Positions 14,380 to 51,767 of a stretch of 64,000 nucleotides of DNA are shown here, in pieces. Location of the stretch: the NCBI GenBank assembly GCA_964562055.1, contig CAZLSE010000001.1:28062-92061 (forward strand), written 5' to 3'. Position 1 is the first letter of the stretch. Each line of letters starts with the position of its first letter. The notes under the pieces were generated by a model, which saw nothing but the letters and a program-made list of their open reading frames with translations, was not told the origin of the DNA and made no database searches. The position numbers and the translations under genes are program-made. Source of the stretch: an uncultured Gammaproteobacteria bacterium (lineage in GTDB: Bacteria > Patescibacteriota > Microgenomatia > UBA1406 > GWC2-37-13).

Positions 14380-14387
14380 ACGAAGTG

Positions 14388-14460
14388 TGAGCCCACTGGG
14401 ACTCGAACCCAGAACCAACAGCTTAAAAGGCTGCTGCTCTACCAATTGAGCTATGGACCC
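14388..14460 (-). tRNA. tRNA-Lys (anticodon UUU)
   Basis: Hand-folded cloverleaf: GGGTCCA acceptor, GCTC/GAGC D stem, anticodon stem GCAGC/GCTGT with loop CTTTTAA, T arm CTGGG-TTCGAGT-CCCAG. 73 nt, no encoded CCA. Confidence 0.85.
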
Positions 14461-16370: not shown

Positions 16371-16489
16371 TTCCATACTGATTATTTGTATGAGAGGCAC
16401 TTATGCTACCTAAACGGAGGCTAAAAAGGTCCGATCTCATGAGACTATTAACGTAAGCAGTAATTATACACTACTTTTGGTAAATAGTG

Positions 16490-16560
16490 TTGCCCAGCCT
16501 GGATTTGAACCAGGATAATCAGATCCAGAGTCTGATGTCCTACCGTTAGACGACCGGGCA
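16490..16560 (-). tRNA. tRNA-Gln (anticodon CUG)
   Basis: Hand-folded: acceptor TGCCCGG/CTGGGCA with the U1-A72 pair typical of bacterial tRNA-Gln, anticodon stem TCAGA/TCTGA, loop CTCTGGA, T arm CCTGG-TTCAAAT-CCAGG. Confidence 0.75.
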
Positions 16561-16564
16561 AGCC

Positions 16565-19500
16565 CTATGATTTTACCACAAAGTTAGCTATCTTCCCTTT
16601 TACATAAATAAGTTTGTATTGCTTACCCTCAAGATATTTTTTCAAGCCAACATCGGATTGTACTGTTTTTTCAACCATATCTTGTGTCGGCTCTCCCTGG
16701 ATGGTTATTGTTCCTCTGAATTTGCCATTTATCTGAATCGGAACAGTTACTGACGTCTGTTTTATATCAACTTTTGTTTGGGTTGGCCATTGTGAACTAT
16801 GAATCGACGATGTTTCTCCATACATTCTCCATATTTTCTCAGTCACAAACGGTGCAAATGGTGCTAATATTTGAAGAAATTTCTTTGCTTCATCCCATGA
16901 AAGACTTTCGACCTTCGACTTTTGACTTTCGACTACAGACTCATATTCATTCAGAAATTCCATCATGGCGGCTATTGCGGTATTAAATTTGGTCTGTGCA
17001 ATATCATCTCCCACTTTTTGAATAGTCTTGTTGAGCTTGGCAACCAGTTCAGAATCGGACTTTTGACTTTCGACCTTGGACTTTTGACTTGTATAGAGAT
17101 TCCACACTCTTTTTATAAATCGGTGTGCACCCTGAAGAGCAGATGTTGACCACGCAATTTCCATATTAAAAGGGGCCATAAACATCTCATAGATTCTAAG
17201 CGTATCCGCTCCATATTGGGCAACCACATCATCGGGATTAATGGTGTTTCCCCACGACTTACTCATTTTTCGGTGATCTTCAGCAAGCACCATGCCGACA
17301 TTCCTAAGTCGTAAAAATGGTTCTGGAAAGGTAAGGAGCCCCAAATCCTGAAGAGCCTTCACCCAAAACCGCGCGTACAATAAATGGAGCACAGCATGTT
17401 CTGCTCCACCCAAATACCAGTCAACCGGTAACCAACCAGCGTCCTTCGAGCTCCTAGAGTTTTGACTAGCAAGCCACTCATTTTTCAAATTTTGATATTT
17501 GATTTTTGATTTTTGATTTTTTACTCCAATTTGCATCACAAATTGGAGAAAGTACCAACAACTTCCCGCCCAGTTAGGCATGGTGTCTGTTTCACGCGAT
17601 GCCTTACCGCCACACAGTGGACACGACACTTCTTTAAATCCGCTTATTGCCGTTAATGGCGACTCACCTGTGTCGGTTGGCTCGTACGATTTTGTATAAG
17701 GAAGTTCAAGGGGTAGTTCCGACTCATCAATCATGGTCCATCCCTTTACTGAGCGTACCTCAATAAACCGCAGTAACTCAAATTGTTCTTTGCTGTCTTT
17801 TGTCCCCGCACTAAAATGAGCTTTCCCTGGAACTACATGTACATTTTCCGCTCCAAATATCTGTTCTGCAAACGGTCTCATTTCTTTGGGAAGATATGGG
17901 TCGTTTTCGCCAAACACAACTGTAATTTTTCGCACATTCTTCTTAATCTTTTCCCAATCGATGGCATGATTGTTATAAAGTGTATCGAGTGCGTCGCCTG
18001 TTTTTTGATCAAACGCATTAACTAAGATGGGTTTATATGCGGAATCCACATAAAGCACCGGAGCAACCAAAACAAGCTGATCTATTTTGTTTTCTTGTGC
18101 AATGTGTAGTGCGGTACCCGCTCCGCTTGAATGACCAATAATTATTGATGACGGCCGTGTATATTGTGAGTAGTTTGAGCGTAAAAATGCCATTCTCTCC
18201 TCAAATTTTGGAAGCTTGGCATCCGGTAGAGTTGGCGACACTGCCTCAACTCCACTTAATTTCAGATGATTTACCAGCCATGGAAACCAATTTCCATTCC
18301 CATTACCCCAAGTGCCGTGAATAATGAGTGCGTTCGTATCTTGTCTGTTCTTTTCGCATACATCACAATGAACCATTGGGATAGGTTCACCCCAGTATCG
18401 TTGTCGTGAAAATATCCAGTCACGAAGATGATAGGTTACCGTACGCTTACCCCATCCTTTATCTTCAAGATAGTCCATTACTTTCTGAGTTGCTTCGTGA
18501 ATGTCTAGTCCATTTAAAAATTCAGAGTTAATCATTGTGCCCTCTTCCTCTTGTACCTGTTCTTTTTTGGTGATAAGGCCAGTATCGCCATCTTTTCCTT
18601 TAACAACGCGCAATACATCAATTCCAAACTCTGTAGCAAATTCAAAGTCACGAAGATCATGACCCGGAACGCCCACAACAGCACCAGTCCCAAATCCAGC
18701 CAATACAAAGTCAGAAATCCAAATAGGCATTTCACGTCCGTTTAAGTTATTGATAGCATAAAATCCGGTAAACACACCTGTTTTTTTTCTCCCCTCTGCA
18801 GATCGCTCCATTTCATTTTTTGCTTTAGCTTTCTCAATATAATCTTTAATCTCTTTTAAGTGTGTACCTTCCGCCTTTAATTCTGAACTCAGTAGTTTAC
18901 CTACGAATGGGTGTTCGGGAGCTATAACAATAAACGTTGCCCCAAAATTAGTATCTGGCCGAGTGGTAAAGCAGATAATTGTCTCTGTTGAATCCTTAAT
19001 TGTATACTCAATATTTATCCCCTCTTTCTTGCCAATCCAGTTCCGTTGCATTTCCAATATCCCTCGTGGCCAGTCAAGCAAGTCAAGATCCTTGAGAAGT
19101 CTATCTGCATACGCAGTTATTCTAAAAATCCATTGAGGAAGTTCTTTTTTAGTTATTTCCGACCCACACCGCTCGTGAGTACCATTTGCAAGCACTTCCT
19201 CCTCGGCAAGACCTGTTTTACACTTCGGACAGAAATTTATAGGCGTATTGCGTTTGTACAACAGTCCCATCTTAAAAAACTGCATAAAAAGCCACTGTGT
19301 CCATTTGTAGTAGCTTGGATCGGTGGTAGAAAACTCTCGACTCCAGTCATACGAATACCCAAGCATGTTCATCTGTCTTTTAAAGTTTGCAATATTACCC
19401 GGTACCATATCCATGGGATTTTTTTTCGCTTTAATTGCGGCATTCTCTGCCGGCAACCCAAATGCGTCCCAACCCATAGGATGTAACACATCTTTTCCCG

Positions 19501-19711
19501 TCATTTTAAAATAGCGGGCCAATACATCTGTGCCTGTATATATACGAACGTGACCAACATGAAGTCCAGCTCCTGAGGGATACGGAAACATTGATAGACA
19601 ATATGATTTATTTTCCTGACTTTCGACTGTCGAATAAACCTTTTCCTTCTCCCATAGCTCCAGCATTTTAGCTTCAAATTCTGTTGGGTTATATTTTTCT
19701 GATTCGTCCAT
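16565..19711 (-). CDS. leuS: Leucyl-tRNA synthetase with an inserted alpha/beta-hydrolase domain and several repeat-derived loops
   Basis: HIGH motif (HVGHVRIY), CP1 editing motifs (TTRPDT, GTGAVVGVPGHDLRDFEFA), KMSKS (RKMSKSWGN). The start is set at MDESEKYNPTEFEAKMLELW, which matches the canonical LeuRS N-terminus. Confidence 0.9.
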   Translation of the reverse strand: MDESEKYNPTEFEAKMLELWEKEKVYSTVESQENKSYCLSMFPYPSGAGLHVGHVRIYTGTDVLARYFKMTGKDVLHPMGWDAFGLPAENAAIKAKKNPMDMVPGNIANFKRQMNMLGYSYDWSREFSTTDPSYYKWTQWLFMQFFKMGLLYKRNTPINFCPKCKTGLAEEEVLANGTHERCGSEITKKELPQWIFRITAYADRLLKDLDLLDWPRGILEMQRNWIGKKEGINIEYTIKDSTETIICFTTRPDTNFGATFIVIAPEHPFVGKLLSSELKAEGTHLKEIKDYIEKAKAKNEMERSAEGRKKTGVFTGFYAINNLNGREMPIWISDFVLAGFGTGAVVGVPGHDLRDFEFATEFGIDVLRVVKGKDGDTGLITKKEQVQEEEGTMINSEFLNGLDIHEATQKVMDYLEDKGWGKRTVTYHLRDWIFSRQRYWGEPIPMVHCDVCEKNRQDTNALIIHGTWGNGNGNWFPWLVNHLKLSGVEAVSPTLPDAKLPKFEERMAFLRSNYSQYTRPSSIIIGHSSGAGTALHIAQENKIDQLVLVAPVLYVDSAYKPILVNAFDQKTGDALDTLYNNHAIDWEKIKKNVRKITVVFGENDPYLPKEMRPFAEQIFGAENVHVVPGKAHFSAGTKDSKEQFELLRFIEVRSVKGWTMIDESELPLELPYTKSYEPTDTGESPLTAISGFKEVSCPLCGGKASRETDTMPNWAGSCWYFLQFVMQIGVKNQKSKIKYQNLKNEWLASQNSRSSKDAGWLPVDWYLGGAEHAVLHLLYARFWVKALQDLGLLTFPEPFLRLRNVGMVLAEDHRKMSKSWGNTINPDDVVAQYGADTLRIYEMFMAPFNMEIAWSTSALQGAHRFIKRVWNLYTSQKSKVESQKSDSELVAKLNKTIQKVGDDIAQTKFNTAIAAMMEFLNEYESVVESQKSKVESLSWDEAKKFLQILAPFAPFVTEKIWRMYGETSSIHSSQWPTQTKVDIKQTSVTVPIQINGKFRGTITIQGEPTQDMVEKTVQSDVGLKKYLEGKQYKLIYVKGKIANFVVKS
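16906..16940. repeat. Heptamer micro-array, TTTCGAC family, 5 units, inside leuS
   Basis: TTTCGAC CTTCGAC TTTTGAC TTTCGAC TACAGAC on the + strand. Encodes VVESQKSKVESLS on the minus strand. Confidence 0.8.
17054..17088. repeat. Heptamer micro-array, TTTCGAC family, 5 units, inside leuS
   Basis: ATCGGAC TTTTGAC TTTCGAC CTTGGAC TTTTGAC. Encodes TSQKSKVESQKSDSE. Confidence 0.8.
17484..17525. repeat. Heptamer micro-array, TTTGATT variant, 6 units, inside leuS
   Basis: TTCAAAT TTTGATA TTTGATT TTTGATT TTTGATT TTTTACT. Encodes KNQKSKIKYQNLKNE. Confidence 0.75.
19614..19634. repeat. Heptamer micro-array, TTTCGAC family, 3 units, inside the leuS 5' region
   Basis: TCCTGAC TTTCGAC TGTCGAA. Encodes STVESQE. 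Confidence 0.6.
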
Positions 19712-19772
19712 ATATATCAATTTTGGTATAAAATTGTAAATTTTTATGTACTTAATAAATGAATATAATTCA

Positions 19773-20792
19773 TTATTCAAATAGCTTTAGTAGATTATAC
19801 ACCTTCTCTTTTACTTTTTCTGTCACCTCAATTGCCACAATCCCTCTGTCCCTCATACCATACATCACTCGTGTCCCGAGCGGAGATATAAGTACAACGG
19901 GTAGAACCAATAAGTCTTCTTCTCCATCAATAATGAGTTGTTTTATGGCTCTTTTATGCTCTAAACTAATTAATTTGAAAAGTGCTTTAATTGAATCTTG
20001 TGAAATTGTTCCTTTTTCATTTAGAGCATATAGACAATCTTTTTGTATAATTTTCTCAAGATATTCTTTGTTTAGGGCTTTTCGGAGAGTTTTTTTATCT
20101 ATTACCGAAAAAGTGGGGGAAAAACCTCTTTTTACAAATTCATGTGTCACTACATCGCCTACAGTTATCCACATTGTGTCCCCCAGAGTTGTGGCTAAAT
20201 TGTGTAACGATGCAGTTTTTGTGAATAAATACTCCTCAATAGTCCGAAAAGAGTGGCCCAGTGGCATTCTTAAAGCTGGTATAAGTGATTTTGGCAGATG
20301 ATGTACTTTTCTGCTAAATAATAGGCTTCTGTATGATGTTCCATGCCTATTTATGTATCCCTGCCTGATGCGTGTTGATGATATTACCACATTATCATTA
20401 CCTTTTTTTAGGTCTATAAAAACCACTGAAAGGGGCTTCATGCCGAGCTCAACGCGTTTTTTATTGATAAGATTTGCCCCTTTTTCTGTATCTTGTGTAA
20501 TAACAATTGCATCGATAGAACGCTCTAAAATGGTTGGACCATAGATATCATTAATCCTTACAATAGTGAATTGTCTATTAAAAACCTGTGCATAGGTGCT
20601 TACATTTTTTCTGCGCGTAACCCACGAATCATGACATTCACGTTTGAGTTTTTGGAGAGCCATTTTTTGTGAAGTTATGCCGATAGTAACTTTTTGCCCG
20701 ACTTTAAAGCACTTTCGTATCAACTGTTTATGACCTTCATGAAACGTATCAAACGTGCCTCCGCATACAACATGGGAAAACATAGAGCACAA
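19773..20792 (-). CDS. Fusion of archaeal-type phosphopantetheine adenylyltransferase (cytidylyltransferase fold) and DUF359-type GTP-dependent dephospho-CoA kinase
   Basis: The N-terminal half has CGGTFDTFHEGHKQL (nucleotidyltransferase HxGH) and ISSTRIR. The C-terminal half has GDVVTHEF...SVIDKKTLRK...IDGEEDLLVLPVVLISPLGTRVMYGMRDRGIV, matching the DUF359/COG1909 pattern as I remember it. Confidence 0.65.
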   Translation of the reverse strand: MCSMFSHVVCGGTFDTFHEGHKQLIRKCFKVGQKVTIGITSQKMALQKLKRECHDSWVTRRKNVSTYAQVFNRQFTIVRINDIYGPTILERSIDAIVITQDTEKGANLINKKRVELGMKPLSVVFIDLKKGNDNVVISSTRIRQGYINRHGTSYRSLLFSRKVHHLPKSLIPALRMPLGHSFRTIEEYLFTKTASLHNLATTLGDTMWITVGDVVTHEFVKRGFSPTFSVIDKKTLRKALNKEYLEKIIQKDCLYALNEKGTISQDSIKALFKLISLEHKRAIKQLIIDGEEDLLVLPVVLISPLGTRVMYGMRDRGIVAIEVTEKVKEKVYNLLKLFE

Positions 20793-21946: not shown

Positions 21947-23065
21947 TTACCTCGTCACCTGATAACTCTTGACAGTCTCCAGAAGTTTTTTTGCTTCCTC
22001 ATTTTTTTCAAAATGCGCATGCACTGGACAAAGTAACCGGTCAAGATAGTCTGATACTGCAGTTTTTAAGTCCATTGGGTGAAGCTTTTTTTCTGCAAAA
22101 GCAGTTTCAAGCTCGGCATAGGTTGCAAAGCGGAGTGTGCCCCCCCATTTTTCGGGCCGTTCGATAACAAACTCAGTAATACCAAGACGATCAAATGACT
22201 CAAAGATAATATATTTACAATACTCAAGCACAGGATTTTCCTTTATATCACCTTCGAGGCAGTACGCTTTATTTATTTTACGCTTAATATCTTCTGTGGT
22301 ATCGGTCATAAAAATTGCACTGTCCGGCATTGATTTTGACATTTTCCTCTCTATTGTTTCCTGAATTTTTGCATTTTGCATTTCACTTTCGACTTCCGAC
22401 TTTAGACTTTTGACTTTTTGTAGTCCCATTAGCATGTGGTGACTTACAACAACCGGCTTCCAATACCCAAGTTGCGGCCCCACTTCGCGCGCGAGCATAT
22501 TTACTTTTCGTTGATCCATTCCCAGTTGTGTAATCTTTGCGCCAAGCATAAAAATATCTGCAACCTGCATACACGAATAGATAATATGCGCGCCCGTAAG
22601 TTTTTCAAGCGACTCCTCACGCCCCATCATCTCTGCAGTACGAACAAATCGTTTTAGAGCGTTTGACTTTCCCACTTGTAAAACCAACTTCCAATAATCA
22701 GGATTTTTAGCCATATCAGATGCCCACATAAATTCAACGTGGTCAAGATCCATTCCTGACGCACGCCACACCTCAATAAAATAACGTCCGACTGTTTTTA
22801 TCTTTTCAAGATCACCGCCCATTTTATTATTCGCCATCGCATGCCAGTCTGCAACCCACATGCGGAACTTCACACCCGCTTTAATCATCTTGTTTACATT
22901 TATTGCACGAAGAAGACCTTGGGCGATATGAATCTGTCCCGATGGTTCAAATCCATCATACGCAATTAGTTCTTCTCCACTTTCTAGGTAGTTTTTTAAC
23001 TCATCACTTCCAATAATCTCTTCACCAACTTGATTGATAAGATTGAATTTGTCTTGTGTATTCAT
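21947..23065 (-). CDS. tyrS: Tyrosyl-tRNA synthetase, archaeal/eukaryote-like type
   Basis: YDGFEPSGQIHIAQGL (HIGH-equivalent), VADWHAMANNKMGGDLEKIKTVGRYFIEVW, GMDQRKVNMLARE and KMSKS closely parallel the plant-type TyrRS as I recall it. The start is set at MNTQDKF. Confidence 0.85.
   Translation of the reverse strand: MNTQDKFNLINQVGEEIIGSDELKNYLESGEELIAYDGFEPSGQIHIAQGLLRAINVNKMIKAGVKFRMWVADWHAMANNKMGGDLEKIKTVGRYFIEVWRASGMDLDHVEFMWASDMAKNPDYWKLVLQVGKSNALKRFVRTAEMMGREESLEKLTGAHIIYSCMQVADIFMLGAKITQLGMDQRKVNMLAREVGPQLGYWKPVVVSHHMLMGLQKVKSLKSEVESEMQNAKIQETIERKMSKSMPDSAIFMTDTTEDIKRKINKAYCLEGDIKENPVLEYCKYIIFESFDRLGITEFVIERPEKWGGTLRFATYAELETAFAEKKLHPMDLKTAVSDYLDRLLCPVHAHFEKNEEAKKLLETVKSYQVTR
22380..22414. 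repeat. Heptamer micro-array, TTTCGAC family, 5 units, inside tyrS next to KMSKS
   Basis: ATTTCAC TTTCGAC TTCCGAC TTTAGAC TTTTGAC. Encodes KVKSLKSEVESE. Confidence 0.8.
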
Positions 23066-27015: not shown

Positions 27016-29008
27016 CTAGTGTATCATTGTTAACATCATGATTCGCATATACTTTTCAATAATCTGTTGTGTGTCCGCTTCTGTGAGTGCTCTAGGCATA
27101 TGCATTTTATTAGAAGCTTTTAATATAACGTTTACCATGCGTTCAGGATCAAAAAATTTCAGTGTTTGACCATCAAGAAATGAATTAAACAGCCGCGGTA
27201 CACGCTCAATCCTTCGTTTTCCTCTTAAAAATAATGAATATAACTGCTCTTTGGAAATTGCTGAATTTGTTTGTCTAATGCTGTCTATATCGATATTTAA
27301 TAAGGAGTCGATAAAGTGTCCCACAGGCACATTAAAGTCTTCTATGATGATATCTGTTAGAAGTTTCTCATAAAAGTCTTGCTCATTTAGTTTGAGAATT
27401 GATTTAAATACAGATCGCCCATCTCTCAACTCTGGATTTTGATCAGTTAAATTTATGGGTGACCATGTATTTGCAATAGGCACGGCGAATCGTCTATCAC
27501 CAAGGGTAAGATCTAACGAATGAATTTCAGATAACTTATCAATGGTGTTTGGGGATAGTTCTTGACCTGTTCTTATACCAACCGCAAAGGTACCACCAAA
27601 TCGTCCCACGATGATCTTCTCTCTGTCACCAGGTTCTAGACAAGATTGAATTTTATTCCATAATTTTTTAATAGAGATATCAGAGTCAGCGTATGTTGCT
27701 TTTTCATTAATTTCCTTAATAAATTTCAAATCGAAGGTTGCAACCATACTAAACTCATCATCTCGAAAATAGGATTGAAACTGGTCACGAGAATATATTG
27801 CTTCACCAATAAGTCGATCAAATAATGAATTTTCAACTGTTTCAAGTAAAACTTGTCGGCGGGCAATAGCGCCATTGTCAGCGTGGGGATCTGTTTCATC
27901 TAATAATTGTGCAAGGTCAAAGTAAAATGCAAGTTCGGGGTGTTGGGTCTGAATATATTCAATTTTCTTCTGTAGTGTGTTTACTTCGGGGGGGATAGTT
28001 AGATGATGTTAACGGATAATCTTTACGGTACATCTCAATGTCAAATTTTCCGTTTTTTGAATATTTATTCACAACCTTTTGAAACTCTTCTTTTGTTAAT
28101 AGAAGTCCACGTTCAGGATATTCTTTAAAGACTAGTCGTTGATCAACCAATGTCTCATCTCCACTTTGGGGAAACTCAATTTCTTCAACAACACTACCGT
28201 TTGAGCTTGACTTAAGTTGAATTGGTTCTCGCTTTATTACTGCTTCTCCATCAGCCAGTGTGTATTGATAATAGGAATTGTTTTCTGGAAGTGCTAGTTG
28301 TCGCTGAATTTCTTCATATAATTTTCGCTTTTCTTCCGGTGAAAAAGATCCAAAAAGACCAACCACAAATTCGTCTCCCCCATACCTTCCAATTTCCCAA
28401 GACTTATTTATTCTTTTACTCTCATCGGAGGTGTAATGAAGTGAATCAAACGCATTTCGAATTGCTCTTGCAGCTTTATTGATCAATACATCGGCGGGTT
28501 TATCTTCTTGATTGGGTAGTTCAAAATCAGCACCACGAAGGTTATGAATATCAATCAAACCTATAGAAACTCCATAATCCTGCCCCTTTAACGCTAGCAA
28601 ATTTTGAACGCGATGTTCCTGTAAAACTCGAGTAATAAAGGCAGATCGAGTAAGTATGGGCACCGAACCCGCCTCAAAAGGCTCTTGAACATTTGGTATT
28701 TCACATTTTCGATATTTGCTCGTACCACTATCAAACACTCCATCAAATAAACTTTCAAAAATATTTGTTACGCCTTGTTCGCTGTTAGTTTCTGGTATCG
28801 TAAGCATTGCCAGTTCATATCCAAATAACCGTCTTAGCGCATTTTGCTTTTCCTGACTTATTAATGATGCCTTCGAGACTGCTCTTTCAACCGTTCTCTT
28901 TTGAAACTCTGGATTTGCTAATACCGATCCTTTACGCTGGCCACCCAATACGTCGAGAATTTTGAGTAAGCGATTGGTTATATCACCAATTGTGCTTTCT
29001 ACAACCAT
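27016..29008 (-). pseudogene. GGDEF-domain-like protein with an uncharacterised C-terminal domain, split by a frameshift in a C7 run (G7 at 27988-27994 on the + strand)
   Basis: The upstream ORF contains IGLIDIHNLRGAD...EIGRYGGDEFVVGLFG. The frame of the downstream ORF (27016-27747) stays open upstream to the homopolymer. Removing one C gives ...NYPPEVNTLQKKIEYIQTQHPELAFYFD...SMVATFDLKF, one ORF of about 664 aa. Confidence 0.55.
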
Positions 29009-29050: not shown

Positions 29051-31000
29051 ATGACAAACATCACCGACCTACAAACACTTGCCAAGCGTGTGCGAAAAAA
29101 TATTGTTACCTCTACAACTGCAGCGGGAACAGGACATCCTTCTTCATCTCTTTCTGCTGTTGAGCTTACTGTTCCGCTCTTTTTTGACGGGTACTTCAAG
29201 CAGGATACTACGCATCCGGAATATATTTCAAACGACCGTTTTGTTTTATCGAAGGGGCATGCTGCGCCCCTCTTATTTTCACTCTACGAGGCGGCGGGTG
29301 TGATTACCGAAAAAGAACTTCTTACTCTTCGTAAGTTTGATTCACGACTCCAAGGCCACCCAACCCCCGAGTTCCCTTATGCAGATGTTACAACGGGCAG
29401 TTTAGGGCAAGGGCTTTCGGTGGCAGTTGGTATGGCGATGGGAATACTAAAAAAATTTCAAATTTTAAATTCTAAATTTCAAATTCCGCGGGTTTATGTT
29501 CTTCTGGGTGATTCAGAGTTTGCAGAGGGACAAAATTATGAAGCACTCCAGCTTGCCGGACACTATTCGCTTTCCAACCTTATTGCCGTACTTGATGTGA
29601 ATCGGCTTGGACAACGCGGGGAAACTCAGCTCGGATGGGACGTGAAGACATATAAAAAACGTTTAGAGTCGTTTGGATGGGATGTAGTAGTAATAGAGAA
29701 TGGGAATTCTCTGGAGGAAGTATCTGCAGTGTATAGGTCTCATCTCACCGCACAAAGATCAAAACCGCTCATGCTAATTGCTAAAACAAAAAAAGGTGCG
29801 GGCGTGCAGTTTATGGAAGATAAAGACGGATGGCATGGTAAACCTATTCCGGGGAATCAACTTGAAGAAGCTTTGCGTGTTATTGGAGATTTTGACACTA
29901 CTATTGTGGGAACCATTACGAAACCATCAATTACAAATGACAAATTACAAATAACAAATCAATCCTCAAATGCCAATGACCAAACGTTACACGTTACACG
30001 TTACACGCTACACGACAAAGTAGCCACCCGTGAGGCGTATGGTCAAGCGCTTGCAGACTTGACACAAAAAAACAAGGATGTAATTGCACTTGATGCTGAA
30101 ACATCCAACTCCACCTATGCAGAGTTTGTTAAAAAAGAAACGCCCGAGCAATTTATTGAAACATATATTGCTGAACAAAATATGGTCTCGATGGGCTTGG
30201 GTATGTCTAAGGTGGGCTGGATACCGTTTGTGTCGAGCTTTGCCGCATTCCTCACCCGTGCATTTGACCAGATCCGTATGGCTCAGTATTCAAAACCCAA
30301 TATGACTGTGGTTGGCTCACATGCTGGTTGTTCCATTGGACCGGACGGGGCTTCACAAATGGCACTTGAAGATATTGCCATGATGCGAAGCGTACGTGAA
30401 AGTGTTGTGCTCTATCCATCAGACGCAGTCTCTACCTATGTTCTAATTCATCAGGTTGCAGGTCTTACTGGTCTTCACTATATTCGTACCACACGTGAAA
30501 AAACCCCGGTACTATATGGACCCGACGAGCTGTTTCCTGTTGGAGGACTCAAAATACACTATGCGTCTCGTGTAACGCACAACGTAAATCGTGAAGCGTC
30601 TGGACAAAGAGATAATACGTTACACGCTACACGCTACACGACCGACGCGGTAATTATAGGCGCGGGTATAACGCTCCATGAGGCGCTCAAGGCGCAAAAA
30701 ATACTCAGTGAAAAGAAAGTTAATACTGTCGTAGTAGATTTATACTCGGTAAAACCACTTGACGGCAACACTATTGCAAAACTTGCTCAAAACACAAAAA
30801 AACTAATAGTTGTTGAGGACCACCACGCCGCTGGCGGCATTGGTGAAGCCGTGCTATCTGAACTTTCGACTTTCGACCTTCGACTTTCGACTCAATTTAT
30901 CCATTTATGTGTCCGCAAAGAACCCCGCTCAGGAACGCCTGAGGAGCTTATGCGGTATGAGGAGATTGATGCCGAGGCTATAATAAAAAAAGTAATATAG
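29051..31000 (+). CDS. tkt: Transketolase, N- and C-terminal halves fused, with repeat-derived insertions
   Basis: TPP-binding half (GHPSSSLS, GSLGQGLSVAVGMA, LLGDSEFAEGQNYEA) and pyrimidine-binding/C-terminal half (KVATREAYGQAL, YIAEQNMVSMGLGM, GPDGASQMALEDIAMMR). Confidence 0.9.
   Translation: MTNITDLQTLAKRVRKNIVTSTTAAGTGHPSSSLSAVELTVPLFFDGYFKQDTTHPEYISNDRFVLSKGHAAPLLFSLYEAAGVITEKELLTLRKFDSRLQGHPTPEFPYADVTTGSLGQGLSVAVGMAMGILKKFQILNSKFQIPRVYVLLGDSEFAEGQNYEALQLAGHYSLSNLIAVLDVNRLGQRGETQLGWDVKTYKKRLESFGWDVVVIENGNSLEEVSAVYRSHLTAQRSKPLMLIAKTKKGAGVQFMEDKDGWHGKPIPGNQLEEALRVIGDFDTTIVGTITKPSITNDKLQITNQSSNANDQTLHVTRYTLHDKVATREAYGQALADLTQKNKDVIALDAETSNSTYAEFVKKETPEQFIETYIAEQNMVSMGLGMSKVGWIPFVSSFAAFLTRAFDQIRMAQYSKPNMTVVGSHAGCSIGPDGASQMALEDIAMMRSVRESVVLYPSDAVSTYVLIHQVAGLTGLHYIRTTREKTPVLYGPDELFPVGGLKIHYASRVTHNVNREASGQRDNTLHATRYTTDAVIIGAGITLHEALKAQKILSEKKVNTVVVDLYSVKPLDGNTIAKLAQNTKKLIVVEDHHAAGGIGEAVLSELSTFDLRLSTQFIHLCVRKEPRSGTPEELMRYEEIDAEAIIKKVI
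29454..29488. repeat. Heptamer micro-array, AATTTYA family, 5 units, inside tkt
   Basis: AATTTCA AATTTTA AATTCTA AATTTCA AATTCCG. Encodes KKFQILNSKFQIP. Confidence 0.75.
29930..30016. repeat. Two abutting heptamer arrays (ATNACAA x5-7, then ACGYTAC x4.7) forming the inter-domain linker of tkt
   Basis: ATTACAA ATGACAA ATTACAA ATAACAA ATCAATC CTCAAAT..., then ACGTTAC ACGTTAC ACGTTAC ACGCTAC ACGAC (29984-30016). Encodes ITNDKLQITNQSSNANDQTLHVTRYTLHD. Confidence 0.8.
30617..30642. repeat. Heptamer micro-array, ACGYTAC family, 3.7 units, inside tkt
   Basis: ACGTTAC ACGCTAC ACGCTAC ACGAC. Encodes TLHATRYTT. An inverted copy CGTGTAACG lies at 30569-30577. Confidence 0.8.
30864..30891. repeat. Heptamer micro-array, TTTCGAC family, 4 units, inside tkt
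   Basis: TTTCGAC TTTCGAC CTTCGAC TTTCGAC. Here it is read in the sense orientation and encodes LSTFDLRLST. Confidence 0.85.
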
Positions 31001-41087: not shown

Positions 41088-41108
41088 AGTCTATATACAA
41101 ACAGTGCA

Positions 41109-41164
41109 AATTTGAAATTTTTAATTTTGAATTTTTATTCAATTCTAAATATTAAATTACAAAT
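41109..41164. repeat. Intergenic heptamer array, AATTTKN family, about 8 units
   Basis: AATTTGA AATTTTT AATTTTG AATTTTT ATTCAAT TCTAAAT ATTAAAT TACAAAT, between the ATPase start and the stop of the next gene. Confidence 0.65.
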
Positions 41165-49760: not shown

Positions 49761-49763
49761 TGA

Positions 49764-49938
49764 GTTTATAAAGTTCATAACGTTTATAAAGTTTGTAAAG
49801 TCTGAATGACGAAAGGCAAAAACTACAAGTTACAAGCTATAATGCAACAAAATATTTACAGCGCACTAAAGCGATACAGTTTAGCGTATGTGTTGTCGTT
49901 TGGGCTATTGGTTTTGAGCTTTCAGCTTTTAGCTATTC
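49764..49938. repeat. Composite micro-array leader A: 9-mer GTTTATAAA x4-5, heptamer GYTACAA x4, spacer, heptamer GCTTTNA x5
   Basis: GTTTATAAA GTTCATAAC GTTTATAAA GTTTGTAAA GTCTGAATG (49764-49808). ACTACAA GTTACAA GCTATAA TGCAACA (49822-49849). GCTATTG GTTTTGA GCTTTCA GCTTTTA GCTATTC (49904-49938). Confidence 0.75.
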
Positions 49939-50686
49939 CCCTGTACGCAGTCAACATGGACTCAAATGAATATCGCATCCAATTTGGAACAATCGGTACT
50001 GGAGGTGGAAAAATGGAAGACAATGTTGATAATACCTATACCCTTACCTCAACTCTCGGGCAGGCAGCTTCAAAAGAATTTCAGTCTAATGGATTTATTG
50101 TAAAGGCGGGTTTTCAATATATCTATTCACGCACACCGTTTACATTTTCACTTTCTACGTTACAGATGGATTTTGGTACGCTCATACCCAATACGCCAGC
50201 CACACTCCCCCTCACCTTATCTGTTTCGTTTGGTGGAACGGGTCAGTATGTGGTAACTGCACGAGCCGATAGCCCTCTTACACGTCGTGCTGGTTTACAA
50301 ACAATACCGTTTACCTCTGTAATGGCGGTGTAGATACCTGCACTATTTCTGCCGCAAAAACATGGACGTCTGCTTCTGCGTATGGATTCGGATATTCCAT
50401 GGCAGGCGAAGATATCCCGGCCGACTTTACGAGTGGCAATCACTTTCGTCCGTTTGCCAATCTTCTCGCAACAGAACCCCCTCAAATTGTTATGTCGGGC
50501 GTCAACGTAACCGACAATATCACGCCTACTCCCAATCCCTCCTATTCACCCGCGCCTCAGTTGACAGGAGTTGAGCGTGACACAGTACATGAATCTATCA
50601 TGACCATGAAAGTAAACGTGTCCGCTATCCAACCCGCAGGAAGTTATACGTCCGTTATACGTTTCCTTGCAACTCCATCGTTTTAA
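49806..50686 (+). pseudogene. Secreted surface protein (paralogue of the C-terminal part of 55014-56540), frameshifted
   Basis: Signal peptide KRYSLAYVLSFGLLVLSFQLLAIPLYA. The second frame is open from 50273 and reads CNGGVDTCTISAAKTWTSASAYGFGYSMAGEDIPADF...PAGSYTSVIRFLATPSF, paralleling CDGASCTESTSGDWASATNNGLGYSL...PAGYYYNKVKYTASAIF. Confidence 0.5.
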
Positions 50687-50687
50687 A

Positions 50688-51767
50688 ATGAAAAGTTATG
50701 TAGTTATACAGTTTTTAAAGTTTGTAAAGTCTATAAAGTTTATAAAGCTACAAGCTACAAGTTACAAGACACAAGTTGTAAGTTGCGGTTTAGTGCAGTT
50801 GATATCATTTGGATTTTTAGCTTTGTGCTTTCAGCTTTCAGCTAATACCATATATGCTCAACAGGTGCGATTATCAATCGATCCTCCCATTGTACAGTCA
50901 AAAATAAAACCCGGAAAATCGATACTGGTTGCCTATACCGTAGAAAATGGGGGCGACCCTGTAGCTGTGCAGTTTGTTATCTATGCATTTCAACCAGTTG
51001 GCCGTACAGGCGGTGTTGAACTCATTGAACTTGACGGACCCATTGAGTTTACACTTGAGAATGCCGATGTTTCCCTCAAAACTCCTTTTTTCTTTAATTC
51101 CAAGGAACGAAAACAAGCACTGGTTCGTATTTCTATTCCTTCAACAGCACCTGAGGGAGATTATTATTACATGATCGTTGCGGAAACAGTGCCACATGCA
51201 CCGTCCGAAGGAAGATCACAATCTCAAACTAGCGCGCAAATAGGCGCACCACTCCTCATATCGGTTACCGAGTCGGGACTTACAGAGGTGCAGGCCCGCA
51301 TAGCAGAATTTAGCGTATCCAATACATTTGATATTACGATTGCGAACAAAAAAATGAAATTCATCGATTCATCTCAAATGGTGCCTGTAACACTTGTTAT
51401 TGAAAACCAAGGCAATAACGTCATTCAGCCAAAAGGCACAATAACCGTTCGTTATGGGAAAACTACCAAAACAATAAACTTGCTCGAACAAAACATTTTA
51501 AAAAAATCTCAACGAATAATTTATACGAGACCGTCAACCAATGCGCCCGCACATGTGAGTGCTATGCTATCTGGATTTGGTATTGGGAAACATACGGTAA
51601 CCTCCCAGGTATCATATGGCGCATTTACCCCAGTTCAGTTTGCTCATGTGGAACTGTACGCAGTTCCCATCCGAATGATAGGACTGGGAATTATTACCCT
51701 TCTTTTCAGCAGTAGTATTGTCTTATACTCCCATAAAAAGAAACGAACCAATAAGGTATCCAATTAG
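50688..51767 (+). CDS. Cell-surface protein with two Ig-like domains and a C-terminal TM anchor (DUF916/DUF3324-like architecture)
   Basis: Signal peptide, RLSIDPPIVQSKIKPGKSILVAYTVENGG, YYYMIVAE, APLLISV, VTLVIENQGNNVIQPKGTITV, and C-terminal TM IGLGIITLLFSSSIVLY followed by KKKR. The start is 1 nt after the upstream TAA. Confidence 0.55.
   Translation: MKSYVVIQFLKFVKSIKFIKLQATSYKTQVVSCGLVQLISFGFLALCFQLSANTIYAQQVRLSIDPPIVQSKIKPGKSILVAYTVENGGDPVAVQFVIYAFQPVGRTGGVELIELDGPIEFTLENADVSLKTPFFFNSKERKQALVRISIPSTAPEGDYYYMIVAETVPHAPSEGRSQSQTSAQIGAPLLISVTESGLTEVQARIAEFSVSNTFDITIANKKMKFIDSSQMVPVTLVIENQGNNVIQPKGTITVRYGKTTKTINLLEQNILKKSQRIIYTRPSTNAPAHVSAMLSGFGIGKHTVTSQVSYGAFTPVQFAHVELYAVPIRMIGLGIITLLFSSSIVLYSHKKKRTNKVSN
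50702..50847. repeat. Composite micro-array leader B, with the same module order as leader A
   Basis: AGTTATACA GTTTTTAAA GTTTGTAAA GTCTATAAA GTTTATAAA (50702-50746). GCTACAA GCTACAA GTTACAA GACACAA GTTGTAA GTTGCGG (50747-50788). GCTTTGT GCTTTCA GCTTTCA GCTAATA (50820-50847). Confidence 0.75.

Follow-up and report, generated by a model that had tools for sequence, protein, structure and literature searches.

The stretch of 64,000 nt analyzed here (the window) spans positions 28,062 to 92,061 of contig CAZLSE010000001.1 (assembly GCA_964562055.1), from a Microgenomatia member of the Candidate Phyla Radiation (CPR), and its leucyl-tRNA synthetase (LeuRS) gene contains short tandem arrays of 7-nt units. 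Such arrays are a genome-wide and clade-wide trait, not a LeuRS peculiarity: they are non-triplet microsatellites that lie in-frame and in quantized lengths within essential-enzyme loops of a streamlined genome. The account that we favor, and consider likely, is that they are heptanucleotide simple-sequence repeats (SSRs), born by slippage and reshaped at the DNA level, then filtered by selection. An initial annotation of the window had noted them at four places in LeuRS; they occur also in transketolase, in a Trp-type synthetase, in intergenic DNA and at many loci of the clade. The LeuRS gene and its arrays are as follows, with copy numbers and scores from Tandem Repeats Finder (TRF).

16565–19780, minus strand: LeuRS open reading frame (ORF), with Pfam tRNA-synt_1 (class I core), LeuRS editing domain and Anticodon_1.

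16903–16934, minus strand: array A, period 7, 4.6 copies, score 50; coding strand AGTCGAA AGTCAAA AGTCGAA GGTCGAA AGTC; encodes VVESQKSKVESL, aa 949–960.

17058–17090, minus strand: array B, period 7, 4.7 copies, score 45; coding strand AAGTCAA AAGTCCA AGGTCGA AAGTCAA AAGTC; encodes TSQKSKVESQKS, aa 897–908.

17490–17521, minus strand: array C, period 7, 4.6 copies, score 57; coding-strand unit AAAAATC; encodes KNQKSKIKYQN, aa 754–764.

19614–19634, minus strand: array D, a contracted remnant of ~2 units, AGTCGAA AGTCAGG on the coding strand, aa 49–56.

Arrays A, B and C are strong by TRF and lie within a few bases of where they were first placed. Array D, with 2–3 imperfect units, falls below the significance threshold on its own, yet it is orthologous to full 32-nt arrays in three relatives (L058, L061 and L063) and is therefore a genuine array locus. 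Translation confirms the peptides first quoted for the arrays; SQKSKVESQK-type stretches belong to them, and KFQILNSKFQIPR is a further example of an array peptide.

Twelve period-7 arrays were found by a period scan of the window, against 0.13 in dinucleotide-preserving shuffles. Other periods are rare: none at 3–6, 8, 10, 12 or 15, one each at 11 and 13, three at 9, and eight at 14, which is twice 7. Codon shuffles gave 0.006 arrays in LeuRS (three observed) and none in transketolase (five observed). TRF agrees with this separate scan, reporting period 7, 4.4–4.7 copies and 80–95% matches for the window arrays, which comprise at least eight distinct heptamer units. Outside LeuRS they are the following.

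22367–22418, minus strand: composite 52-nt array in the Trp/Tyr-type tRNA synthetase ORF (TrpRS; Pfam tRNA-synt_1b), TTTTGCA twice, then about five TTTCGAC-family units; encodes QKVKSLKSEVESEMQNAK.

29453–29485, plus strand: transketolase array 1, AAATTTC, 4.7 copies; encodes KFQILNSKFQI; long allele.

29929–29959, plus strand: transketolase array 2, AATTACA, in the interdomain linker.

29984–30014, plus strand: transketolase array 3, ACGTTAC, in the interdomain linker.

30569–30640, plus strand: transketolase loop 4, with an ACGCTAC array at 30617–30640 and a partial inverted copy at 30569–30592.

30862–30892, plus strand: transketolase array 5, ACTTTCG, 4.4 copies; encodes ELSTFDLRLST; of the LeuRS A/B unit family in the opposite coding orientation.

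41108–41135, intergenic: AAATTTG/AAATTTT, 4 copies, 21–48 nt upstream of a P-type ATPase ORF.

Within 49913–50843, plus strand: arrays in two neighboring ORFs without a Pfam match, TTTCAGC at 49913–49934 and 50820–50843, and CTACAAG at 50745–50775.

LeuRS homologues place the organism in the Microgenomates/Roizmanbacteria group of the CPR. For comparison we used ~60 related loci obtained via LeuRS, and 114 arrays were analyzed in all. Period-7 arrays are frequent in many Microgenomates/CPR loci, reaching 11–12 per ~20 kb in each of L027, L028 and L044. They are absent from L002 and L003, which are fairly close relatives (72–73% LeuRS identity), and archaeal loci have at most one. Most loci hold 0–2 arrays of other periods, a few hold three, and L042 has five of period 9. 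Across loci the units are diverse and A/T-rich, the usual array length is 27–34 nt, and ORFs of 90 aa or more contain 93 of the 114 arrays. Every sequence used stems from metagenome-assembled contigs, so that an assembly or sequencing artefact has to be weighed; its probability is vanishingly small, as the same arrays appear at the same codons in independent samples and assemblers (metagenome-assembled genomes at NCBI, Logan assemblies of several SRR runs, and ENA), their reading frame is always preserved, and divergence between relatives is graded.

The periodicity resides in DNA, not in a protein repeat, as had been proposed from the window alone. The TTTCGAC/GTCGAAA family reads VESQKSKVES in LeuRS and STFDLRLST in transketolase, unrelated peptides from opposite orientations, and arrays are also present in intergenic DNA. 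Identity at third codon positions is 70–74% inside arrays vs 48–54% in the rest of the gene (Fisher p 0.01–0.06 per pair), while amino-acid identity is lower inside, 61–80% vs 82–89%. Since 7 cannot be divided by 3, a given position of the unit meets all three codon positions across successive units, and homogenization of units therefore couples synonymous to non-synonymous sites. The converse reading, by which the segments are protein-level repeats, selected as K/S/Q/N-rich flexible loops with a function such as tRNA binding and with the 7-nt period as a by-product, can point to peptides that are polar and probably disordered, to the recurrence of ENWKLKIKN and SQKSKV in distant lineages, and to the lysine-rich appendages that help tRNA binding in eukaryotic synthetases. 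A peptide repeat would, however, give a 21-nt and not a 7-nt periodicity, and only ~1.5 heptapeptide copies are present. The two-orientation peptides and the codon-position identities largely refute this reading, which we regard as very improbable.

All coding arrays keep the reading frame. Intergenic arrays nearly all contain stop codons on both strands, with only 2/21 and 4/21 free of stops. Lengths differ as well: 53 of the 93 coding arrays measure 29–34 nt vs 5 of the 21 intergenic ones (Fisher p 0.008), which spread over 17–48 nt. In-frame tolerance through three units, equal to 21 nt, had been suggested in the initial annotation, and exact 21-nt indels in LeuRS and transketolase bear it out. 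At the N-terminal loop of LeuRS the window reads ACA GTC GAA AGT followed by CAG, and L058, L061 and L063 have 21 additional bases (3 units) at that point. In transketolase array 1, L065 lacks exactly 21 nt (FQILNSK) and retains the seed AAATTTCAAATTCC. Short alleles thus keep ~2 units. Close LeuRS pairs have seven-codon indels in arrays only, and no single-unit step in copy number was observed among relatives, as expected for essential ORFs. A strict scheme of one seed plus three units for every array was rejected, since perfect coding arrays of 17–25 nt and of 40 nt exist and some array indels are 12, 15 or 51 nt; a step of 21 nt is the most frequent clean change rather than a rule.

Array sequence also changes in concert at a fixed position and length. 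LeuRS of L062 (93.5% nucleotide identity) has a perfect ATCAAAG array of 4.6 copies as its array B, unchanged in position and length, where the window units are imperfect and of AGTCAAA type. Array A of L058 has AGTCCAA three times where the window reads AGTCGAA, AGTCAAA, AGTCGAA, and transketolase array 5 of L065 has AATTTCA units vs ACTTTCG in the window. Even in L004 (65% protein identity) the loop at aa 897 is still periodic, yet with another unit consensus. Divergence of arrays is bimodal: most arrays are nearly unchanged and better conserved than the gene that carries them, and a small number are replaced throughout. This bimodality ruled out the idea that arrays are uniformly fast-evolving.

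Copies of arrays appear at second sites. A repeat search identified 30617–30642 as a 26-nt, 96% copy of 29991–30016 (transketolase array 3 plus flank), with the partial inverted copy at 30569–30592, and in L064 transketolase loop 4 holds a 35-nt, 97% copy of the linker array. Loop 4 has three unrelated arrays (ACGCTAC, AATTACA and AAACTCG) in three relatives that are 89–91% identical. A variant order common to the LeuRS arrays and transketolase array 5 (CCTTCGAC) was considered as proof of copying and dropped, as a synonymous A/G change could recur.

These copies raise the question whether a small element, mobile or insertional, inserts itself in-frame into ORFs as Rickettsia palindromic elements (RPEs) do; RPEs are dispersed palindromic elements of roughly 100–150 nt with family consensus sequences. 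Copying of an array together with its flank to a second loop of the same gene is what such an element would do; units are more alike within a genome than between genomes (30% vs 14% within one mismatch), with L044 dominated by AAATACT; array size is uniform, at about 31 nt; and both orientations are present. Against it, the arrays are neither palindromic nor bounded by terminal repeats and lack target-site duplications, the units number in the dozens and are unrelated, so that no element consensus exists, and 31 nt is well below the size of an RPE. Short alleles that retain a ~2-unit seed and differ by exactly three units, and homogenization of units in place at constant length, are likewise not what integration predicts, and we think an element of this kind quite improbable.

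One replacement in LeuRS has a different character. In L062 (10001–13138, compared with window 17400–17540) ~120 nt around array C are swapped for an unrelated FLAFSFWNQEKANSKFEIKNLKLNENWKLKIKNFGS, which matches the distant Microgenomates P0030 and P0051. The motifs WAGSCWYF and WLPVDWY, both highly conserved, flank the region, which is therefore probably a loop cassette imported by recombination. A second class of in-frame insert is found in relatives, namely in LeuRS of P0012, P0030 and P0006, in transketolase of L012 and in transketolase loop 4 of L064 and L065, with peptides such as DSGQARMT, SGARRGFPRR and SSFANASEDK; the DNA for SSFANASEDK in L064 has inverted hexamers (TCCTCC ... GGAGGA). 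Inserts of this class resemble RPEs more than the heptamer arrays do; none was seen in the window itself.

The arrays lie where the proteins are permissive. In an AlphaFold2 model of LeuRS (mean pLDDT, the predicted local distance difference test, 81; model numbering is ORF numbering minus 23) all four arrays are in coil between helices or strands: array D at residues 26–33, array C at 731–741, array B at 874–885 (coil 875–886) and array A at 926–937 (coil 929–938). Two of them have pLDDT <50, array C at 730–737 and array A at 932–934. All coincide with gapped or variable stretches of the alignment, so that the variable surface loops named by eye in the initial annotation are upheld, and the transketolase arrays likewise fall at gaps or variable parts of the alignment to human transketolase. 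Not every segment is a lineage-specific insertion: some take the place of loop sequence of equal length. The best solved relative of the window LeuRS is that of Thermus thermophilus (PDB 1H3N, E 1e-205), and the loop of array C, 15+3 aa longer, is the sole clear net insertion relative to it. By codon alignment the array A loop is ~24 nt longer than the equivalent loop of L002–L004, and the array B loop has equal length in relatives. That all LeuRS arrays are net insertions therefore holds for aa 754 and aa 949 and fails for aa 50 and aa 897, where the loops are not longer than their counterparts in Thermus or in near relatives.

LeuRS is a hotspot: it accounts for 14% of the bases and for 47 of the 114 arrays (p about 1e-12). 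In one alignment these 47 arrays, from 20 lineages, recur at about nine loops (window residues ~50, 254–267, 294–306, 478, 750–765, 765–779, 896–907, 948–959 and 1025–1034). The same loop carries different units by lineage; the N-terminal loop has GACCGAC, CCAATCC, AGTCGAA, AAACTCA, AAGCCAG or GGCCATC. Transketolase, TrpRS and the gene upstream of LeuRS bear arrays in several lineages.

Of 93 coding arrays, 81 have more A than T when read on the coding strand, and so do 16 of 20 among head-on genes. Since the bias holds for both co-oriented and head-on genes, array orientation tracks the gene and not the replication fork. Within the window the arrays had seemed to have a common TTWCRNN register on the plus strand, where GC skew is negative throughout, and a replication-linked orientation was entertained; the coding-strand bias across the 114 arrays ruled it out. 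Among the residues encoded by arrays, Q, N, S and K are ~2-fold enriched, and G, A, W, C, M and D are depleted. Four-bp palindromes in the units (TCGA, ACGT, AATT, GATC) were set aside as a methylation or restriction signal, as by our own estimate ~44% of heptamer arrays should have one by chance.

Clustering and orientation bias would also be features of selected cis-acting nucleic-acid signals in particular housekeeping genes, such as sites for DNA- or RNA-binding proteins or for translation pausing. That arrays of different lineages cluster strongly in LeuRS, the gene upstream of it, transketolase and TrpRS is in keeping with such signals, as are nucleotide conservation above the synonymous background and the position of the intergenic array 41108–41135 just 5′ of a start codon. 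No common recognition sequence emerges, since units differ among arrays of one gene and among lineages at one loop; entire arrays give way to unrelated units in relatives 89–94% identical; and L002 and L003 live without arrays. Conservation and orientation bias are expected equally from unit homogenization plus a peptide filter. We accordingly give cis-acting signals little probability.

Under the SSR account that we prefer, a DNA-level process would act genome-wide in the CPR/Microgenomates lineage, making arrays and continually reshaping them. Slipped-strand mispairing at short direct repeats 7 nt apart would most likely be the generator, supplemented by template switching or gene conversion between arrays, the enzymatic step being polymerase slippage or template switching. 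Selection in essential genes would then pass length changes of three units (21 nt, seven codons), units that are stop-free in all three of the frames they cycle through, units that read as a polar Q/N/S/K-rich peptide on the coding strand, and positions in structurally permissive surface loops. The outcome would be an ‘accordion’ between about two and about five units, repeatedly re-homogenized, and the encoded loops would be near-neutral passengers rather than selected functions.

Several points weigh against this account. One-step slippage covers a deletion from five units to two, not an expansion from ~2 to ~5 and not homogenization of adjacent units; steps of three units equalize only units that are three apart. 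Intermediates of +1 or +2 units would be lethal frameshifts in LeuRS, and multiple slips, ectopic templating or misaligned conversion must therefore be assumed, none of them directly observed. The account does not explain why 7 nt is so sharply preferred over 5, 6 or 8 nt. Permissiveness may not be the whole reason for the clustering in LeuRS, transketolase and TrpRS, and distant lineages have some array-derived peptides in common (ENWKLKIKN), a conservation that could indicate function; hotspots and cross-lineage conservation together make a selected role possible. The replaced LeuRS loop of L062, finally, could equally be a recombination import.

A more novel reading is an active process that writes and copies 7-nt arrays into surface loops of essential enzymes in CPR/Microgenomates, toggling them between ~2 and ~5 units and moving them between loops, with hotspots in LeuRS, transketolase and TrpRS that reflect targeting or selection and not tolerance alone. 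Such a process could be enzyme-specific, for instance a polymerase or repair pathway that stutters or switches template and has a 7-nt ruler. We regard it as unlikely; if true, it would be a previously unrecognized engine of protein-loop innovation with a built-in frameshift hazard in streamlined genomes.

Other observations concern the LeuRS gene and its surroundings. The predicted ORF has its 5′ end at TTG 19780, and homologues all begin at ATG 19711 (MDESEKY) or its equivalent, so that, judged by homologue starts, the true start is probably ATG 19711. The 23 codons 5′ of it are AT-rich and probably a promoter or 5′ untranslated region, shared with a divergently overlapping upstream gene. 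A tRNA-Gln(CTG) gene lies at 16489–16560, 5 nt 3′ of the LeuRS stop codon, and a tRNA-Lys(TTT) gene at 14387–14460, after a BipA/TypA-like GTPase gene. Rfam and tRNA scans of the window found no RNA gene that overlaps any array, and no Rfam family besides tRNAs.

A complete serine hydrolase domain of RBBP9/YdeN type lies within LeuRS at 17741–18349 (aa ~478–680), between the HCDVC and GW motifs. It matches Pfam PF06821 and human RBBP9 (E 4e-9), aligns at the GHSSG nucleophile motif and is well folded in the AlphaFold2 model. The domain is confined to the closest eight LeuRS homologues (P0001–P0008); elsewhere the site has short loops or heptamer arrays. It could be an esterase fused into the synthetase and acting on aminoacyl esters. 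Three of the hydrolase-bearing enzymes (P0003, P0007 and P0008) have a divergent connective peptide 1 (CP1) editing domain, in which the conserved TTRPDTNFGATF becomes SAYPAWLFADTF and adjoining segments differ too; the window LeuRS retains the canonical TTRPDTNFGATF editing motif. Because P0003 otherwise matches P0002 closely despite its divergent CP1, alignment suggests recombination at the level of the domain in P0003.

Near the heptamer arrays of 49913–50843 are two period-9 arrays (TTATAAAGT-type units, 4–5 copies) at 49763–49801 and 50704–50747, at or just 5′ of two neighboring ORF starts. After each come two heptamer arrays, first CTACAAG and then TTTCAGC, the latter in the hydrophobic N-terminus; the arrangement as a whole looks duplicated.

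Extrapolated from the density in the window, roughly 200 arrays per Mb may sit within genes like LeuRS, TrpRS and transketolase, in which every single-unit slip should be lethal. If the SSR account is true, a mutational process and not protein-level selection shapes many lineage-specific loop insertions of these CPR enzymes, and the arrays are a clean case of a frame filter that quantizes a repeat in 3-unit, 21-nt steps. Homogenization of units would tie the three codon positions together, so that synonymous sites are conserved while the peptide drifts. Close relatives free of arrays would be a comparative handle on the replication or repair gene that sets the 7-nt slippage preference, a preference noted in prokaryotes since 2007 and still without explanation. 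In practice, CPR proteins will be misaligned at the arrays, and phylogenetic markers based on indels and calls of domain boundaries will be led astray by them.

Among known systems, phase-variable contingency loci resemble the arrays in that a non-triplet SSR lies in a coding region, where gain or loss of one unit causes a frameshift. Classically, a non-triplet microsatellite within a coding region serves as an on/off switch of a dispensable gene. In contingency loci the genes are dispensable surface or restriction-modification genes and on/off switching is the function, whereas the arrays lie in single-copy essential enzymes. Out-of-frame states should therefore be lethal, and in-frame alleles alone are seen; from what the host genes encode, on/off switching by the arrays is implausible.

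RPEs had been named in the initial annotation as the closest precedent, a comparison that we replace below with a closer one. They share with the arrays the tolerance of repeated DNA in-frame in housekeeping ORFs, at surface positions of the protein, and coding arrays do lie in-frame without disrupting the ORF. The arrays differ in being direct tandem repeats of ~31 nt (24–52 nt) with many units, no shared consensus and no hairpin, that change by unit steps; inverted partners were found by the repeat search only at transketolase loop 4. Units differ between arrays and between lineages, and resemblance within a genome is at the level of the unit only.

The amino acid tandem repeats (aaTRs) of Borgs are in-ORF tandem repeats that create disordered regions, with in-ORF unit lengths always divisible by three (PMC9879509). 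Like the arrays, they are fast-evolving, genome-specific in-ORF DNA repeats with an A-rich coding strand and disorder-promoting residues, and related proteins have repeats at similar places but with different DNA units. The arrays correspond to this description in their ~2-fold enrichment of Q/N/S/K, their coil or low-pLDDT loops and the replacement of whole arrays in relatives 89–94% identical. Copy numbers of Borg aaTRs are often higher. In contrast to Borg units, the array unit of 7 nt is read in all three frames, with a peptide period of 7 aa in ~1.5 copies, and so only 3-unit steps are viable.

Fixed heptamers are known from several bacteria. The TAACTGA repeats of Beggiatoaceae lie just upstream of start codons, have stops in all three frames in forward orientation and have been proposed as a signal (PMC4679880); others are the GGGNATC repeats of Xanthomonas and Nostoc (PMC4692102) and the cyanobacterial short tandemly repeated repetitive (STRR) heptamers. 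All these families have one or few fixed units per genome and are mostly intergenic. The arrays share with them 7-nt tandem units, patchy phylogeny, occasional in-ORF copies at protein peripheries and occasional inverted array pairs. Here, unlike there, the units are diverse, stop-free and inside conserved enzymes; neither a fixed unit (at least eight in the window) nor an intergenic location (93/114 in ORFs) describes them. No unit of the window matches TAACTGA or GGGNATC, and none is known to match the STRR heptamers. In the literature consulted, no account of such arrays from CPR genomes came up, an absence that is no proof of novelty.

The closest known class is that of the prokaryotic heptanucleotide long SSRs (LSSRs). 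Heptanucleotide repeats are the commonest class of long SSRs in prokaryotes, for which a polymerase-slippage rationale has been proposed, with the suggestion that the polymerase contacts a stretch of about 7 nt (Mrazek, Guo and Shah 2007, LSSR5-11, as cited in PMC4679880 and PMC4692102). As reported there (Mrazek 2007, as cited in PMC4679880), LSSRs occur mainly in large genomes (Burkholderia, Xanthomonas, cyanobacteria, actinobacteria) and are mainly intergenic, and in-gene units are usually multiples of three. The arrays depart from this pattern in belonging to a small CPR genome, in lying about 80% inside ORFs, essential synthetases included, and in being quantized at about 4.5 copies with many A/T-rich units per genome. 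Like LSSRs, they consist of head-to-tail 7-nt units far above chance, are genome-specific and missing in near relatives, and vary in length and sequence between close relatives; tandem 7-nt copies, an excess over composition, and whole-unit variation in copy number, as seen in the exact 21-nt indels of LeuRS and transketolase, place them nearer to this class than to RPEs.

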